64,000 nucleotides of DNA from the NCBI GenBank assembly GCA_030765805.1, contig JAVCDH010000017.1, forward strand, positions 2,467 to 66,466, read 5' to 3'. Position 1 is the stretch's first letter, and each line of letters starts with the position of its first letter. Positions 1 to 5,982 of this stretch are shown here, piece after piece. The position numbers were made by a program, and so were the translations under genes. The notes under the pieces were generated by a model. The model was not told where the DNA came from and searched no databases. It saw only the letters and a list, made by a program, of their open reading frames with translations. This DNA comes from Candidatus Euphemobacter frigidus (lineage in GTDB: Bacteria > Auribacterota > Erginobacteria > Erginobacterales > Erginobacteraceae).

Positions 1-147
1 GCTCGTATTCAAAGAGACGAAAAAATCACTCAGGTCCTGTTCTTCTCCCTCCTGACGGGTGATCTCAACATTTTTAATAAAAGGAATCTCACTAAAAACG
101 TTTTCCAACATTTGCCTGGATTTCTGTTCTATTTCATTGATTTTCAT
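1..147 (-). CDS. 5' part of a gene running off the window start (MKINEIEQKSRQMLENVFSEIPFIKNVEITRQEGEEQDLSDFFVSLNTS...), possibly another AbiEi-type antitoxin or transcriptional regulator
   Basis: ATG at 147 with AAGGGG about 7 nt upstream and an open frame to base 1. A sigma70 promoter and paired operators lie upstream. The family guess rests on context and a loose N-terminal resemblance only. Confidence 0.45.
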   Translation of the reverse strand, partial: MKINEIEQKSRQMLENVFSEIPFIKNVEITRQEGEEQDLSDFFVSLNTS

Positions 148-158
148 TCTATCGCCCC

Positions 159-178
159 TTTTCAGCGTTTGCTGAAAA
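159..178. promoter_or_regulatory. Palindromic operator TTTTCAGC-N4-GCTGAAAA
   Basis: Perfect 8-bp arms immediately downstream of the -10 box; the same core recurs at 234-253. Confidence 0.6.
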
Positions 179-179
179 G

Positions 180-208
180 AATATACACAGTAAAAACGAT
201 CCCGTCAA
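180..208 (-). promoter_or_regulatory. sigma70-like promoter TTGACG-N17-TATATT with TG extension
   Basis: Read directly on the minus strand, upstream of the ATG at 147. Confidence 0.65.
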
Positions 209-228
209 ATAAAAATTTTCATTAATTA

Positions 229-258
229 AGCCATTTTCAGCAAATGCTGAAAATGGCT
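229..258. promoter_or_regulatory. Palindromic operator AGCCATTTTCAGC-N4-GCTGAAAATGGCT
   Basis: Perfect 13-bp arms with the same core as 159-178. Confidence 0.6.
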
Positions 259-353
259 GTTTCAGTGAAAATTATAAGCCATTACCCCATCATCCTTTAA
301 CTGTTTTTTAACCTTCTATGAATATTTAACAATCGCTTAATTTAGGTAAGATA

Positions 354-497
354 TTAATTTCCGGACATTCTTACACAAGCTTTATCGTGTAATAATCGTG
401 TAAAAATCAGATTAATCATGTAGTTGTAAGAAATGACCTTAATTAAAAGTCTCTGGCGAATAGACGCAGGAATATTTTTATGCCGAGACGGCCTCAC
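354..497 (-). pseudogene. Truncated AbiEii toxin: the first 18 codons (MRPSRHKNIPASIRQRLL) followed by unrelated sequence
   Basis: GTG start overlaps the antitoxin stop (GTGA). The N-terminus aligns with MSSTKRKNIGHSVYQRLL of the intact toxin at 2196. Confidence 0.75.
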
Positions 498-1096
498 GCC
501 AACGCCTCAAGATAGGGGCGCATCACATTTGCCACGCGGCAAATTTTGGCGTTGGACCACAGATCATCCATCGAGCATAGTTTTTCCCTCCTGCACTCGC
601 GCAGAGCCTCCAGAACCACATCAAGTCCAATCTTGTTTCTGTATTTAAAGCAATCGGCAACAGTCTTCGCAACACTATATATTTTTACCGATACTCCTTC
701 TATTTCATGAACTTCAATACCGGCGTTGCGGGCTTCGCCCGAAAAACGAACAATCCTGATCGGAGGATATTTCATTCGGGGTTGCCGATCTTTTTCTCCT
801 ATGGCAATCCAGACCTTGTGAGGAATCTGAGTTCCTATATTATAGAATTGAAGAGCGGAAATAAGGCAGATAACTCCGTCGGGTACTCTCCGCGCGACCT
901 GAGCAAGATCATGATTCTCAGTAATATCAGAATCGGCCCGGATATATACTCCCCTTGAAGCTCTATATAGAAGCCCCTTTTCACAGAGACGGCTGAGATA
1001 AACTCTTGGTATCCCGAACTTATCTAGATCACGAGTCCGAAGAACGCCTTTTTCCCGGGCAAGTTTCAGCAGGTTTTCCGCATGATTCTTTTTCAT
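494..1096 (-). CDS. Type IV TA AbiEi family antitoxin
   Basis: N-terminal wHTH (LYRASRGVY), ICLISALQF, and KTVADCFKYRNKIGLDVVLEAL motifs. Confidence 0.9.
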   Translation of the reverse strand: MKKNHAENLLKLAREKGVLRTRDLDKFGIPRVYLSRLCEKGLLYRASRGVYIRADSDITENHDLAQVARRVPDGVICLISALQFYNIGTQIPHKVWIAIGEKDRQPRMKYPPIRIVRFSGEARNAGIEVHEIEGVSVKIYSVAKTVADCFKYRNKIGLDVVLEALRECRREKLCSMDDLWSNAKICRVANVMRPYLEALA

Positions 1097-1102
1097 AGTG
1101 CC

Positions 1103-1132
1103 ATTATGTTACATATTGCAGGTATTTGTCAA
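1103..1132 (-). promoter_or_regulatory. sigma70-like promoter TTGACA-N18-CATAAT, 6 nt before the ATG (probably leaderless)
   Basis: Read directly; no SD between the -10 box and the start codon. Confidence 0.55.
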
Positions 1133-1372
1133 TATCTCCCGACAATTAGTAACATTTCTTGTATCTATTCCATTATTATCCGAAGAAATATTTTTATCTC
1201 CTCCGGGTCGGTAGTGGATATCTTCAATGAAAAATCAGCGTCAAATCCCTACTACTGACAGAAAATAGACAATTCTTAAACCATCCTCCCCTACTCTTTC
1301 ACACTGATATTCAGCCTCCTCTTTTCGGGAAGGAATTATATATATGGGTGAGAAAAAATGGAAGGGAAAAGA

Positions 1373-1461
1373 AAGTGAGCTGCCGACTTCGCCAAAGTAG
1401 CCTCAGGCTACGACGGCTGAAAAAGTGAACTAAAGTTCGAAGTGAGTTAAAGTGACTAAAG
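1373..1461. repeat. AAGTGA(A)CT tandem repeat with an embedded REP-like palindrome (GTAGCC-TCA-GGCTAC)
   Basis: 1379-1428 is identical to 59109-59158. Confidence 0.85.
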
Positions 1462-1602
1462 AATCTTGCCCCGCAAAATGACCTGCGGTCATCGCGGGGT
1501 AAAAATGCAAAAATCCGTCCCGGCATCGAAAAGCAGAAAAAATTGGTTGCATATCCTTGGTACTTGTCTACAATTACCGAGGATATGCAACTGGAGGGAC
1601 CT

Positions 1603-2199
1603 ATGGATCGGAAAGAAAAAATCATCGAACTTGCCAAGCAGAGAGGGATCATTCGTCCCCGTGATGTCGAGGCGGCGGGGATTCCCCGCGAATACCTTCT
1701 GAGGCTATACCGAAATGGGGAGCTGGTTAGGGTGGGGCGAGGACTCTATGCCATGCCGGAAACGCTGACCAGCGAGTCCATTTCGCTGGCAGAAGTCTCC
1801 AAGAGGGTGCCGACTGCGGTAATCTGCCTGATTTCGGCCCTACAATTTCACGACCTGACAACACAGATTACTAACCGGGTGTGGATAGCCATCGAGAACA
1901 AGAAATGGAAGCCGGTAATCGAATACCCCCCCATCGAGCTTGTACGCCTGACCGGGAAAGCTTTCAACTTCGGCATCGAACAACACGAGGTAAACCGCGT
2001 ACAGGTTAAAGTCTACAGCCCCGCTAAAACAGTTGCCGATTGTTTTAAGTTTCGTAACAAAATCGGACTCGACATCGCACTGGAAGCCCTCCGCGAGACC
2101 TGGAAAAGTCGTAAGGCTTCGATGGACGAACTATGGGAAGCCGCCAAGGTGTGTCGCGTGGCGAATGTTATACGTCCCTATCTGGAAGCGATCACATGA
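1603..2199 (+). CDS. Type IV TA AbiEi family antitoxin
   Basis: Start moved to MDRKEK at 1603 (GGAGG SD upstream). Motifs GELVRVGRGLY, ICLISALQF and KTVADCFKFRNKIGLD. Confidence 0.9.
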   Translation: MDRKEKIIELAKQRGIIRPRDVEAAGIPREYLLRLYRNGELVRVGRGLYAMPETLTSESISLAEVSKRVPTAVICLISALQFHDLTTQITNRVWIAIENKKWKPVIEYPPIELVRLTGKAFNFGIEQHEVNRVQVKVYSPAKTVADCFKFRNKIGLDIALEALRETWKSRKASMDELWEAAKVCRVANVIRPYLEAIT

Positions 2200-3119
2200 G
2201 TTCGACCAAGAGAAAAAACATCGGCCACTCTGTCTATCAACGGCTCTTGAACCACGCAAAGACCCACGGCGATGACTTCAATCTCCTGCTCTTCCGATAC
2301 GGCGTTGAACGCCTTCTCTACCGCCTCAGCATTTCTCCCTTCGCCGATATATTCATTCTGAAGGGTGCAAGTCTGTTCCTCGTATGGAAAGGACAGAACT
2401 ACAGAGTGACCAGGGACGCTGACTTGCTTGGTCTGGGTCCTGTGGACGCAGAAAATATAGCCGATATTTTTAAGGAAATATGCCAGGCCGTCTCTGATGA
2501 TGTTGACGGCATTCAATTCATGCCCGACACCATCAGAGTAGCGCCTATCCGTGAAGAGCATGAGTATGGAGGTATCCGGGTAACGCTCGTGGGTATGCTC
2601 CATCATGCCCGTATACCCCTTCAGATTGACATCGGTTGGGGCGATGCCGTCACACCGGCACCGGAAAAGATCGACTTCCCGACGATTCTGGACGCTCCCA
2701 AACCACATCTTCTGGCGTACCCCCGGTATACGATGGTTGCCGAGAAGCTTGAGACCATGGTGCGACTGGGAATAGCCAACAGTCGGATGAAGGATTTTTT
2801 CGACGTCTGGCTGTTGAGCCGGCTGTTTGAGTTTGACGGCCGAACGCTTTGTGAAGCCGTGCGTAACACCTTCCAGCAACGCTCAACCCTCCTGGCGGCC
2901 GGGTTACCGATGGCTTTTACGGAAGAATTCCGGAAAGATACGCAGAAGCAGACCCAATGGCGGGCATTTATACGTAAGTCAAAACCCAAAACCGAGCCTG
3001 GGGACCTTGATACCGTTATCAGCGAAATATCGGAGTTCTTGCTGCCGGCAATAAAATCGTTGCAGAGAGATGAGATGCTTGAATCGGCCTGGGCGAAGGG
3101 TGGACCCTGTTGGAAGTGA
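2196..3119 (+). CDS. AbiEii/AbiGii nucleotidyltransferase toxin
   Basis: ATGA overlap with the antitoxin. Motifs FILKGASLF, TRDADLL, QIDIGWGD, AEKLETM and SRMKDFFD. Confidence 0.9.
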   Translation: MSSTKRKNIGHSVYQRLLNHAKTHGDDFNLLLFRYGVERLLYRLSISPFADIFILKGASLFLVWKGQNYRVTRDADLLGLGPVDAENIADIFKEICQAVSDDVDGIQFMPDTIRVAPIREEHEYGGIRVTLVGMLHHARIPLQIDIGWGDAVTPAPEKIDFPTILDAPKPHLLAYPRYTMVAEKLETMVRLGIANSRMKDFFDVWLLSRLFEFDGRTLCEAVRNTFQQRSTLLAAGLPMAFTEEFRKDTQKQTQWRAFIRKSKPKTEPGDLDTVISEISEFLLPAIKSLQRDEMLESAWAKGGPCWK

Positions 3120-3164
3120 ACTAAAGTTTGGAACTGGGGAATGGGGAATAGAGAATGGGGAATA
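3114..3164. repeat. AAGTGAACTAAAGTT unit followed by five GGGAAT(G/A)-type heptamers
   Basis: The toxin TGA stop lies inside the first unit, which is identical to 1423-1437. Confidence 0.8.
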
Positions 3165-3231
3165 AATGACGAAATCCGCCCCGCAAATCACGCACCACAG
3201 GGTCACATCACAGATAAAGAAATATTCGCCG

Positions 3232-3268
3232 GGGGATAGATACTCTACATGGAGTCCGGGGCGGAGAC
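3232..3268. repeat. 37-bp direct repeat, a copy of the argS 3' end (att-like)
   Basis: Identical to 4266-4302; imperfect similarity extends about 15 nt further. Confidence 0.9.
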
Positions 3269-3311
3269 CCCACTCGGTCTCGAGATTCTTGATTTCTGAA
3301 TGTTGGATCAT
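3258..3311 (-). pseudogene. N-terminal stub of an AbiEii-type toxin (MIQHSEIKNLETEWGLRP)
   Basis: Starts 4 nt after the antitoxin stop and resembles the MI..EI.....WGLRP..VEKDY toxin N-terminus. The resemblance ends where the argS repeat begins. Confidence 0.65.
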
Positions 3312-3315
3312 CGCA

Positions 3316-4143
3316 TCATTCGCCCGCTCGGAGATTCACATTGACTTCGAGATTCCACCGTCTGAGCAGCTTGCCCCGCATGGACGCAGACGGATCAAGC
3401 TTGGAGTAACCTGCACTGATATTCTTCTCGCAGAACATCACCGTATCGGGGGCGTTGATTCCAAGTGTCTCAATAACATATCCCAGACGCTTGATGGCAG
3501 CTCGATTGTTCAGTTTCTCAAGACATTCGCGTAACTCGTTGTCATCTCTGTGCTCACTATCGAAATACTCGGCTACGAACTCAGCCGCATGTTTCATCCC
3601 TCCACCGAGGCGTGGTGTATTCAGAATGTCCGCAATAGTTCGAGAGGGCGATGAGACAGACAGCTTGATGCTGTTCCGCCAGACCGTGGAAAGAGAGAAC
3701 AGTTTCTTATTTGGAATCGCGGTTATAACATACTTGGTTCCTTTGATAAGAGGCGTTCGGTCGCGCACAGGTGATGATGTGAAGACCACCACGTCCGAGA
3801 AGATTTGTTCTGTCAGTCCCCAATGCTCGGCAGCACTCCAGCCACCAATGTAACAAGGGGAGAAAATAGCGTTCGCGACAATCCAGGGATCTTCACGCCA
3901 CTCTGAAGGGTTACTCGCGTTGAGCGGTACGGTAATGTACGTACCTCGTCGTATTCGCGACAACCAGCCTCTCGACGACCAGTAGCAGAGCAGAGATCTT
4001 GTTTTGGGTCGTGACAGCTCAAGTGTCGCGGCGGCTTCATCTATGCCAAAAGGTGCAGAAAGTGCGCGATGCAGTCGCGACAGAAGCTCTCGATGGTATT
4101 TCGAGATACCCAACAAGTTGTCTCTGGTATATCGTGAGTTCAT
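3316..4143 (-). CDS. Type IV TA AbiEi family antitoxin (long type)
   Basis: Motifs GWLSRIRRGTY, YIGGWSAAEHWGLTEQI, SSPSRTIADIL, KRLGYVIE and RRWNLEVN. Confidence 0.85.
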   Translation of the reverse strand: MNSRYTRDNLLGISKYHRELLSRLHRALSAPFGIDEAAATLELSRPKTRSLLCYWSSRGWLSRIRRGTYITVPLNASNPSEWREDPWIVANAIFSPCYIGGWSAAEHWGLTEQIFSDVVVFTSSPVRDRTPLIKGTKYVITAIPNKKLFSLSTVWRNSIKLSVSSPSRTIADILNTPRLGGGMKHAAEFVAEYFDSEHRDDNELRECLEKLNNRAAIKRLGYVIETLGINAPDTVMFCEKNISAGYSKLDPSASMRGKLLRRWNLEVNVNLRAGE

Positions 4144-4174
4144 TTATCCATACTCCGTCTAAACTAATGCACGT

Positions 4175-4203
4175 AGAATATACCAAACCTATCACAGTGA
4201 CAA
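4175..4203 (-). promoter_or_regulatory. sigma70-like promoter TTGTCA-N17-TATTCT
   Basis: Read directly, upstream of the ATG at 4143. Confidence 0.45.
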
Positions 4204-4265
4204 GCGAAATATAGAAAAAAACAGGAAAAAATAGGAAGCGGGCGATAGAACAAGAATATTCACCC

Positions 4266-4302
4266 GGGGATAGATACTCTACATGGAGTCCGGGGCGGAG
4301 AC
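4266..4302. repeat. 37-bp direct repeat covering the last 7 argS codons, the stop and 13 downstream nt
   Basis: Identical to 3232-3268. Confidence 0.9.
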
Positions 4303-5982
4303 GCCGAGAATAGAGAGGCCTTCGGAGATCACCAGCTGGGTCGCCCGGGCCAGGGCCAGGCGGGCGGCCGTCAGGTCGGGATCATCGGTAATCACCCGGC
4401 AGTGATTGTAGTAGCTGTGGAAGATCGCGGCTAACTCCTCCAGATAGGCGGGGATAAGATGGTTCTGGTGGGTCAGGGCGGCCGTTTTAACCACCCCGGG
4501 GAAGAGAACAAGTTTCTTTATAAGTTCCAGCTCCGCCGGTTCGGAAAGACAGGCGAGATCAATCTTCGTAAAATCCGGCAGGGGGCGGCCGGTCACGGCC
4601 CGGAATTTCTTAAAGATGCTGTTGATGCGGGCGTGGGCGTATTGGACATAATAAACCGGATTGTCGTTTGTCTTCTTCCGGGCCAGTTCAAGATCGAAAT
4701 CAAGATGGCTCTCCTTCCGGCGGCGGACGAAGAAATAGCGGGCGGCGTCCTTGCCTACTTTATCCAGCACCTGTCGGAGAGAGATAAATTCACCCATCCG
4801 GGTGGACATCGAGAGCTTCTTCTTCCCCTCATAGAGCGTGGAGAGCTGGACAATGATAATATCCAGACGAGCGGGATTCAATCCCAGGGCTTTCATGGCT
4901 CCCTTCAGCCGGGCGATATAACCGTGATGATCGGGCCCCCAGAAGTCAATCATCTCTGAATAGCCCCTCCCGTACTTCTCCCGGTGATAGGCGATATCCG
5001 AACTGATATAGGTCAGATCGCCGTTTTTCTTTCTCAGGACGCGATCTTTCTCATCTCCATACGCCGATGAGCGAAACCAGAGAGCCCCGTCCTTTTCATA
5101 AGTGCTCCCCCGGGCCGCCAGGTCCCGTAAGACAGCCGTCACTCTACCTTCCGCCACCAGTTCGCTCTCACTCACCCAGGTCTCCATCTCGACACCGAAA
5201 TCCCTTAATTCTTTTTTGATCATCTCCAGCAACGCGCCGGAGGCGAAGGTGCCGCAGTAATCGATTGCCTCTTCCGGGGGTAGCTCGGACAATTCTCTTC
5301 CAGCCGGTTTCAGTCCTCCTTCCAGGATCCGGCGGGCCAGGCCGATGATGTAATCGCCCTGATAATAATCGGCCGGAAGATCAACTTCTTCGCCCCTCAA
5401 TTCACGCCAGCGCAGATAGACCGACTCTCCCAGGATCTTCATCTGGCGCCCGCGATCGTTCAGATAGTACTCCCGGGAGACCCGGTAACCGGCTTTGGCC
5501 AGGAGATTCGCCAGAACGTCCCCCACCGCCGCCTGCCGGCCGTGAGCCACAGTGAGCGGGCCGGTGGGGTTGGCGCTGACAAACTCCAGCAAGACCTTCT
5601 CCCCTTCCCCGGCTCTACTCTCCCCCCAATGTCCGGGAACTCGCAGAAGATGCCGGAGGGCGTCATGGAAGGCGCCCGGGGTAACTGTGAAGTTGAGAAA
5701 ACCCTTGCGGGGGTCGGCTTCCACCCGGGAGATGATCGTCTTCCGGCTGATCCGTTTCTCTATCAGGGAGGCAATGATCTTGGCCGTCTCAACCGGGGAG
5801 CGCTTTACCCGGGAGGCCACCTTCATCGCGATATTTGAGGCCAGATCACCATGCCCTTTCTCCCGGGGAATCTTAAGCTCGACTGAAGGCAGAGAGACGG
5901 GGGGAAGCAAGTTTTGAGCGGCTGCTTCCCGGAAAGCATTTCCGATCAACTCCGAGATACGATCGTTGATCTCAGGCAGCAT
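4279..5982 (-). CDS. argS: Arginine--tRNA ligase
   Basis: Motifs LEFVSANPTGPLTVAHGR, MSTRMGEF and YYVQYAHARI. Confidence 0.97.
   Translation of the reverse strand: MLPEINDRISELIGNAFREAAAQNLLPPVSLPSVELKIPREKGHGDLASNIAMKVASRVKRSPVETAKIIASLIEKRISRKTIISRVEADPRKGFLNFTVTPGAFHDALRHLLRVPGHWGESRAGEGEKVLLEFVSANPTGPLTVAHGRQAAVGDVLANLLAKAGYRVSREYYLNDRGRQMKILGESVYLRWRELRGEEVDLPADYYQGDYIIGLARRILEGGLKPAGRELSELPPEEAIDYCGTFASGALLEMIKKELRDFGVEMETWVSESELVAEGRVTAVLRDLAARGSTYEKDGALWFRSSAYGDEKDRVLRKKNGDLTYISSDIAYHREKYGRGYSEMIDFWGPDHHGYIARLKGAMKALGLNPARLDIIIVQLSTLYEGKKKLSMSTRMGEFISLRQVLDKVGKDAARYFFVRRRKESHLDFDLELARKKTNDNPVYYVQYAHARINSIFKKFRAVTGRPLPDFTKIDLACLSEPAELELIKKLVLFPGVVKTAALTHQNHLIPAYLEELAAIFHSYYNHCRVITDDPDLTAARLALARATQLVISEGLSILGVSAPDSM

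Follow-up and report, generated by a model that had tools for sequence, protein, structure and literature searches.

A decayed AbiE toxin-antitoxin cassette between two copies of the argS tail in Candidatus Euphemobacter frigidus

AbiE toxins arrest growth, their antitoxins neutralise them without direct binding, and the pair protects the cell against phage. AbiE represents a type IV toxin-antitoxin (TA) and abortive-infection system, composed of the AbiEi antitoxin and AbiEii, a DUF1814 nucleotidyltransferase (Dy et al., 2014; PMC3985639). Here, we describe an AbiE locus in a stretch of 64,000 nucleotides (nt) of Candidatus Euphemobacter frigidus (contig JAVCDH010000017.1 of assembly GCA_030765805.1, positions 2,467 to 66,466; hereafter the window), where it lies directly behind argS, the gene encoding arginyl-tRNA synthetase. 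We found that a decayed AbiE cassette is inserted 24 nt past the argS stop codon, between two copies of the argS tail, and that it is an ordinary relic of gene decay rather than a working mobile island.

Islands flanked by attachment (att) sites and remnants of integrative and conjugative elements (ICEs) occur at the 3' ends of housekeeping genes and include cis-mobilizable elements (CIMEs) devoid of an integrase, e.g., ICESt1/CIME of Streptococcus thermophilus, GIsul2 at guaA and SGI1 at trmE. The locus shares with them a repeat copy lying over a conserved gene end, a defence/TA cargo of lower guanine-cytosine (GC) content, the absence of an integrase and the presence of foreign DNA past the distal repeat. 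Unlike in these islands, neither a cognate integrase-bearing element nor an empty site or excision product was found here, one repeat boundary is set by microhomology with a cargo gene, and argS is not documented as a target in the retrievable literature; our literature search for argS as an integration site was swamped by papers on "ARGs" and returned nothing usable. In turn, homology-facilitated illegitimate recombination is known from natural transformation of Acinetobacter baylyi and Streptococcus pneumoniae, and deletions between short homologies are known as well. Similar to such products, the locus displays 8 GC-rich nt assignable to both parents, a truncated partner gene and a possible homologous anchor on the opposite side; it differs from them by a 48-nt duplication in place of the usual net deletion and by a donor-type operon known only at 91% identity. 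As in orphan antitoxins and anti-addiction modules, an antitoxin with its own promoter was kept after toxin loss, among TA loci of the same family, although in contrast to these modules the AbiEi of the window is possibly just a recent relic. The locus is not new as a category; it is a well-resolved case of kinds already known and does not call for a new element class.

The window contains two exact copies of the 37-mer GTCTCCGCCCCGGACTCCATGTAGAGTATCTATCCCC and no more, at 3232-3268 and at 4266-4302 of the minus strand; from 100 shuffles, none is expected. These two copies were claimed in an earlier note made from the sequence alone; we confirmed their identity and found that the repeat extends by a further 11 nt on the side away from argS, forming blocks at 3221-3268 and 4255-4302 (minus strand; repeat family D2) which agree at 46 of 48 positions. 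Both mismatches (3228 G vs. 4262 A and 3231 G vs. 4265 C) fall within the 11 nt of 3' non-coding sequence that lie most distant from argS, the remaining 37 nt being free of any, and the 9/11 identity of this non-coding end is not due to chance (~1e-4). The block edges are sharp, as comparison of the flanks on both sides revealed no residual similarity. The arrangement is that of attL and attR with one copy overlapping the 3' end of a target gene: the proximal copy holds the last 24 nt of argS and 24 nt of its 3' flank. The argS gene (4279-5982, minus strand) encodes a protein of 567 amino acids (aa) with the Pfam domains DALR_1, tRNA-synt_1d and Arg_tRNA_synt_N. It terminates in ...GVSAPDSM-stop, and its 3' end aligns with those of the relatives L021 and L022. 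Since ArgS proteins of 67-71% identity share this type of ending (ISAPDSM, VTAPESM), argS is intact and native.

Between the two copies lie a single abiEi gene and a toxin stub, precisely as the earlier note described. The abiEi gene (3316-4143, minus strand) encodes a full-length antitoxin/repressor of 275 aa, assigned by Pfam to the type IV AbiE system, whose partner toxin is gone. By its Pfam matches the protein is an AbiEi-type antitoxin, a kind built of an N-terminal winged helix and a C-terminal AbiEi domain; its AbiEi_1 score of 26.0 bits passes the cutoff of 22.2, and its AbiEi_4 score of 21.9 bits just misses the cutoff of 25, while homologs carry PF13338. Of the toxin, only 17 codons (MIQHSEIKNLETEWGLR; 3261-3311, minus strand) are left, which align with the beginning of intact toxins. 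Their ATG at 3311 lies 4 nt beyond the abiEi stop, the same spacing that is seen in the intact homologs. A cognate AbiEii partner (PF08843/DUF1814), present in all close homologs, is reduced in the window to these 17 codons, so that in contrast to described AbiE systems we are dealing with an orphan antitoxin, a remnant rather than a working pair. The stub also opens a 110-aa fusion open reading frame (2979-3311, minus strand), which continues through the out-of-frame argS-tail copy into intergenic DNA, matches no family and is probably meaningless noise.

The promoter/operator region of abiEi (4144-4214, minus strand), delimited by a promoter scan and by alignments, is conserved in all homologous operons. 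The predicted promoter consists of a -35 box TTGTCA (4198-4203) and a -10 box TATTCT (4175-4180) at 17-nt spacing, and a 20-nt inverted repeat, I24 (4125-4144/4166-4185), straddles the abiEi start codon; both the promoter-like site and the repeat are conserved across homologs. Later work on the Streptococcus agalactiae system reportedly found negative autoregulation by AbiEi, and the conserved promoter with its inverted repeat would fit such a control. The conservation of ~70 nt upstream of abiEi implies that the cassette brought along its own (predicted) regulated promoter. In turn, the pyrimidine-rich spacer of 40 nt that separates the proximal repeat from the cassette (4215-4254, minus strand) has no homolog in any related locus. 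The ratio of non-synonymous to synonymous substitution rates (dN/dS) of abiEi equals 0.2 against its closest relatives, compared to 0.13 among intact pairs, a value which fits recent orphaning or continued use alike and is uninformative on relaxed selection. What survives of the relic is only AbiEi, a predicted self-repressing DNA-binding antitoxin that, judging from this promoter, can presumably be expressed; it may still neutralise incoming related toxins, or it may simply not have decayed yet.

We determined by blastn that homology between the window and intact operons extends from 4204 (4212-4214 for L014 and L013) down to 3261, i.e., 8 nt into the distal repeat, and that the last 8 nt of the toxin stub (3261-3268) are the first 8 nt of that repeat. 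At this point intact toxin DNA reads TGG GGT CTC CGC GAA GAC, encoding W-G-L-R-E-D (GGTCTCCGCGAAGAC). The sequences around the joint are GGGGTCTCCGCGAAGAC in the toxins of L014 and L048, GGGGTCTCCGCCCCGGAC in the window and GGCGTCTCCGCCCCGGAC in argS; when aligned, GAGTGGGGTCTCCGC is followed by GAAGAC in the two toxins and by CCCGGACTCC in the window, and in argS CCCGGACTCC is preceded by CTCGGCGTCTCCGC. The octamer GTCTCCGC is native to the toxin family, being located within the W-G-L-R codons, as well as to argS, where it occupies 4295-4302 (minus strand; sequence and alignment) in another frame, as V-S-A, and constitutes the argS-side partner of the microhomology. The chance of sharing at least 8 bases at a random joint is 4^-8, or ~1.5e-5 by our own arithmetic. 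Because the octamer is common to the toxin family and argS, and toxin homology then stops, the toxin-to-tail joint is best read as a junction of microhomology-mediated illegitimate recombination, the making of which would have removed the toxin beyond its 17 codons: the joint bases are assignable to both parents, and homology is lost abruptly behind them. As for the parents, the recipient is represented by the argS tail, and the closest donor-type operon, in another context, is only 91% identical.

These results bear on several proposals of the earlier note. Its idea that recombination between argS and a toxin-internal core destroyed the toxin is supported in essentials. The proposed core, shared by toxin and argS in different frames, exists but spans 8 nt and not 11. 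Likewise, homologous toxins were expected to align through WGLRP; they do so over W-G-L-R, for the 8 nt, but intact toxins continue with E-D and not with P. As for toxin relatives with an intact core, a search for which was also suggested there, the L014 and L048 toxins carry the octamer. The fact that the octamer is native to the toxin implies in addition that the inner edge of the repeat was set by the cargo gene and not by an att arm; the boundaries of the distal copy are not independent of the cargo, as its innermost 8 nt are native toxin sequence. This anatomy also effectively refutes a target-site duplication made by a transposase. Direct repeats do flank the insert, as such an event would require; however, they are 48 nt long and imperfect rather than short, perfect and of fixed length, the insert has no terminal inverted repeats, no transposase is present and one edge is native toxin sequence, which leaves this explanation with virtually no probability.

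We found that AbiEi homologs number in the thousands. The closest ones are 88-91% identical and all 275 aa long, and in every close homolog examined an AbiEii (PF08843) toxin of 258-475 aa starts 4 nt after the abiEi stop. The toxins of these intact relatives often, though not always, carry an additional C-terminal WYL domain, unlike classical AbiEii. Amino acid identity to the window AbiEi amounts to 88% for L014, 86% for L013, 80% for L011 and 76% for L012; nucleotide identity of the operons over 4204/4214-3261 reaches 91% for L030-L035 and L040-L048 (a group that also includes L029), 90% for L014 and 83% for L013. The insert has a GC content of 49% vs. 55% in the rest of the window. These comparisons show that the cassette (3261 to ~4214) is foreign-type DNA whose relatives are intact abiEi-abiEii operons. 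The 91%-identical operon is neighbored by an amidohydrolase gene and a gene for a 167-aa protein, followed by HNH genes. Its host, found in the very same samples and encoding an SMC protein 52-88% identical in segments to that of the window, is a related Candidatus Auribacterota bacterium co-occurring with the source organism. The source organism itself falls into Candidatus Auribacterota by the names that its nearest ArgS homologs bear. Since this operon sits in another context in a co-occurring relative, we infer that the cassette moved horizontally within the community. Comparison of the 1.08-kb unit with plasmid and phage records yielded no DNA match.

Several further observations concern these homologous loci. 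A rule that the cassette family is generally flanked by target duplications was considered and rejected, as L011-L013 are without any and the repeats of L014 and L030 are multi-copy. In L014, the flanks share a 42-nt repeat of high significance (z = 11.8), part of a unit of ~100 nt present in three partial copies (37-125, 433-474 and 2715-2836); the copies lie around a VF530 gene, the AbiE operon and the start of a ParB-like gene, and are reminiscent of repeated inter-cassette sequences. The flanking repeat of L030 is marginal and part of a multi-copy motif; copies of a ~27-nt motif, TCAGTCAATAGTCAAGGTTTGAGCCC, surround the operon in either orientation (L030 5750-5781 and 7547-7578). A gene fragment located ~235 nt upstream of the cassette (L048 1-370) is seen in part of the strains of the co-occurring relative and, from our own reading of its translation alone, resembles the zinc-finger region of IS66-type transposases. 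The toxins of the 91% group (L030 6681-7457 and its equivalents in L029 and L040-L047) are 258 aa long, have no WYL domain and diverge from the 391-475-aa AbiEii-WYL toxins at ...ELESE(W) in a frameshift-like manner, with loss of the WYL part; from this pattern, the seemingly intact partners in the L030 group may be decaying as well.

The layout described above recurs with 0 mismatches over 1.3 kb in 17 contigs carrying AbiEi and 14 contigs carrying ArgS or an ArgS variant, derived from different ENA samples (megahit k141), several JGI metagenomes, a metagenome-assembled genome of NCBI (GCA_030765385.1) and one Logan assembly. Each of the two 48-nt copies is crossed in full by k141 contigs, which reach unique DNA on either side. 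As a k141 contig crosses a 48-nt repeat only with real spanning reads, the layout is not an artefact of assembly. One might suspect a chimeric join, or a repeat collapsed or expanded during assembly, from the JGI contig L008, which ends at the repeat, and from the Logan k31 contig L010, which both starts and ends in it. Yet these short-k breaks are the expected behaviour of de Bruijn graphs at repeats and no indication of a circle, and the k141 megahit, JGI and NCBI contigs of many samples agree with unique flanks on both sides, so that an artefact deserves hardly any credence. The repeat-flanked structure is fixed in the population. Among the contigs with identical ArgS, the three ArgS variants or AbiEi, no variant of the same species with an intact toxin was detected; the variant AbiEi P0121, accompanied by an intact toxin, represents the locus type of the other organism and not that of the window. 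For comparison, an empty site is predicted to read from the argS tail directly into ...GAATATT-TCTTTATCTGTG, and the joint of an excised circle to read toxin stub-GTCTCCGC...GAATATT-CTTGTTCTATCG.

All viable histories of the locus share the microhomology joint and differ in the source of the second tail copy. We prefer, tentatively and at somewhat less than even confidence, an insertion followed by a deletion. In the first step, abiEi-abiEii would have arrived on foreign DNA that also bore an argS tail of slightly diverged sequence; a single Campbell-type crossover in the stretch of 37 identical bases, either integrase-mediated or homologous, would have integrated this DNA and left an argS tail at both ends, 46/48 identical. 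In the second, a deletion between two GTCTCCGC octamers, one in the toxin and one opening the distal tail, would have removed the toxin body and everything in between, including any recombinase. The outcome would be an immobile, repeat-flanked relic of 1,034 bp. Under this insertion-then-deletion history the inner edge of the repeat lies where the second-step deletion ended, and the same deletion accounts for the missing integrase. The confinement of the mismatches to the non-coding 11 nt agrees with two homologous tails that differ in origin (attP/attB or donor/recipient). Past the distal copy, foreign-looking DNA of 47% GC goes on with a further three AbiE loci, which fits repeated insertion, i.e., tandem accretion, at this place.

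Several findings weigh against this history. The 6.8 kb distal to argS are made up of AbiE genes plus an ORF6N fragment, with neither an integrase nor a remnant of one, and inspection of the intergenic pieces for integrase remnants revealed none that was evident. No third copy of the argS tail was detected in the window and 2.5 kb past its left end (≤5 mismatches per 24-mer). The two nearest relatives with ArgS identities of 67-71% have neither an island nor a tail duplication at argS; no true sister genome could be compared for an empty site, as the closest further ArgS reaches just 74% identity. An exact search for a 26-mer of the repeat gave 0 matches in metagenome_contigs and viral_contigs, collections which evidently do not hold the source contigs. 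Neither an empty site nor another neighbour or an undeleted island was seen in the 31 contigs. The continuation of foreign-looking DNA past the distal copy, compatible as it is with tandem accretion, also makes such accretion a necessary part of the model. Moreover, a one-step event would give the same end state as the two-step history.

Such a one-step illegitimate capture, in which no site-specific recombinase acts at any stage, is a serious possibility and nearly as likely as the two-step path. In its first version, homology-facilitated illegitimate recombination would involve a donor relative with abiEi-abiEii just 3' of its argS; homology in argS would anchor the incoming DNA at one end, and the GTCTCCGC microhomology would join the opposite end to the recipient. 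As that joint would lie 48 nt upstream of the end of donor/recipient homology, the tail would become duplicated. In the second version, a double template switch during replication would lead from the argS 3' flank to a donor molecule and back at GTCTCCGC. The 8-nt microhomology exactly at the toxin/tail joint, the absence of an integrase, the sharp edges of the repeat blocks and the circulation of closely related operons in the same community all speak for a single event, and both mismatches sit in the non-coding tail, where a donor and a recipient allele of the same locus would be expected to differ. However, no donor with the cassette beside argS was found, the 91% relatives adjoining amidohydrolase and HNH genes, and a template switch needs either two later substitutions clustered in 11/48 nt (~5% by chance) or a donor patch matching 9/11 by chance. 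In general, such events are far less often documented than the insertion of an island followed by deletion.

The earlier note spoke of a mini-island and proposed, as one of two alternatives, that a tRNA synthetase gene serves here as an att site. A third history assumes a non-autonomous CIME-like mini-element with the argS tail as attB, an integrase acting in trans and GTCTCCGC as the crossover core, with a secondary site in the toxin gene. Such a secondary core site would explain where the toxin was cut. The attL-cargo-attR layout, with an identity block reaching from inside a gene to past its stop, is that of elements at tRNA genes and gene 3' ends; the 8 nt have the size of the overlap region of tyrosine recombinases, GGCG-TCTC-CGCC in argS forms a small palindrome, and a second repeat-flanked AbiE module along with a second toxin stub of similar length is present in the same islet. 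On the other hand, no integrase is within reach in the 6.8 kb distal to argS, which bears out the remark of the earlier note that none is nearby as far as the data extend, and ~30 contigs of many samples offer no empty site or alternative context. The repeat was not found elsewhere, the relatives are without argS-tail duplication, and the homologous cassettes at other loci have ends without argS-like sequence. Nor is a 1-kb circle carrying half a toxin gene likely as a designed element. The suggested elements at argS 3' ends did not turn up either: in the two species representatives close enough (67-71%), no mobile genes adjoin argS. We therefore regard the mini-element as unlikely. A role of argS as an att site is a possibility in its own right: the repeat overlaps the argS end, but neither an integrase, an empty site, another occurrence of the repeat nor a duplication in relatives accompanies it. 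A mobile unit is not supported, and relic is the better description.

Under either the two-step history, which we prefer, or the one-step capture, the locus offers a base-resolved example of how a chromosomal TA cassette was disarmed, in which, on our reading, a single microhomology joint explains why the toxin was lost and why the tail of a housekeeping gene is, oddly, duplicated. It also advises caution, since a direct repeat that includes a gene 3' end mimics attL/attR, yet one of its edges was set here by a cargo gene. For Candidatus Auribacterota, it reveals a defence/TA islet with four AbiE loci at argS, the cassettes of which appear to be exchanged with a co-occurring relative.

The islet comprises four AbiE-type loci within ~7 kb after argS (window 1-4265 together with L001 9997-12625) and has a GC content of 47% vs. 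55% for the genome. Next to the distal tail copy lies an intact AbiE pair, convergent with argS and recognised by Pfam and gene calls in L001, which is composed of an AbiEi_4 antitoxin (1543-2199, plus strand) and an AbiEii toxin (~2196-3119, plus strand). It is followed by a second orphan locus (352-1096, minus strand; Pfam) with an AbiEi_4 antitoxin at 494-1096, a toxin stub from 497 to ~444 and a repeat, R1, at 352-446. The fourth locus contains an AbiEi_2 gene, starting at 147 on the minus strand, and a weak AbiEii-like partner, and reaches past the left window edge. In the second orphan the toxin is cut after ~18 codons (MRPSRHKNIPASIRQRLL), and the stub abuts R1, a 95-nt direct repeat that is 83% identical to R2 (L001 11930-12024, past the left window edge). 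R1 and R2 flank the fourth locus, i.e., the AbiEi_2 module.

Homologs of the second-orphan antitoxin, 90-92% identical and derived from other metagenomes, are associated with broken toxins too. In L038 (3040-3350), the locus of a 90% relative from an unrelated metagenome, the toxin is cut within ~6 nt of the window breakpoint and fused to its own last 58 codons, and in L036 (6600-6920) it is truncated after ~73 codons. Evidently, these families routinely lose the toxin and keep the antitoxin. That the stubs are similar in length (17-18 codons) is curious, though the cases are too few for a hot spot. Two AbiE toxins of the 7-kb islet are cut after 17-18 codons, each stub standing beside a direct-repeat copy, and the L038 toxin is cut within ~6 nt of the same position and joined to different DNA; this gives rise to the speculative and distinctly improbable reading that the 5' ends of AbiE toxin genes (~45-57 nt past the start codon) are preferred recombination points, with the argS tail as a reusable docking site for small AbiE cassettes and a trans-acting recombinase that clips their toxins.

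As for the DNA behind argS, a stretch at 3168-3190 (minus strand) consists of CGGGGCGGA and a T-rich run, is complementary to TCCGCCCCG of the argS tail and looks weakly terminator-like, the fold z-score being not significant. The 3' flank variant of the distal copy is slightly nearer to L021. Together, the TCCGCCCCG/CGGGGCGGA pairing and this similarity hint weakly that the distal flank could be the native 3' untranslated region of argS. In L021 (71% ArgS identity), a near-perfect palindromic element of ~225 nt (L021 3588-3815) is located right after the argS stop codon. Because it adjoins the stop, the argS 3' flank appears to be variable in that genome, too.

Repeats of other kinds were noticed across the islet. 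Around the intact AbiE pair, an exact 15-nt direct repeat, AAGTGAACTAAAGTT, occurs upstream of the antitoxin gene (1423-1437) and at the toxin stop (3114-3128), with a third copy of 80% identity at 1440-1454; it may be due to chance. Window positions 140-273, right in front of the AbiEi_2 gene, hold two nested inverted repeats (TTTTCAGCNNNTGCTGAAAA, twice), which, judging by their placement, probably form a putative AbiEi_2 operator. In many assemblies, contigs end ~700 nt past the last AbiE locus, within the ORF6N-like fragment, which suggests a repeat or a strain-variable point. R1 and R2 both contain three TACA(C/T)GAT motifs, and L001 12030-12200 holds three short direct-repeat pairs (ATGTCCGGAAAAATGTCCG, ATGTCACGAAGGATGTCACG and ATGTCCCTAAAAATGTCCCC) that resemble iterons or arm-type sites.

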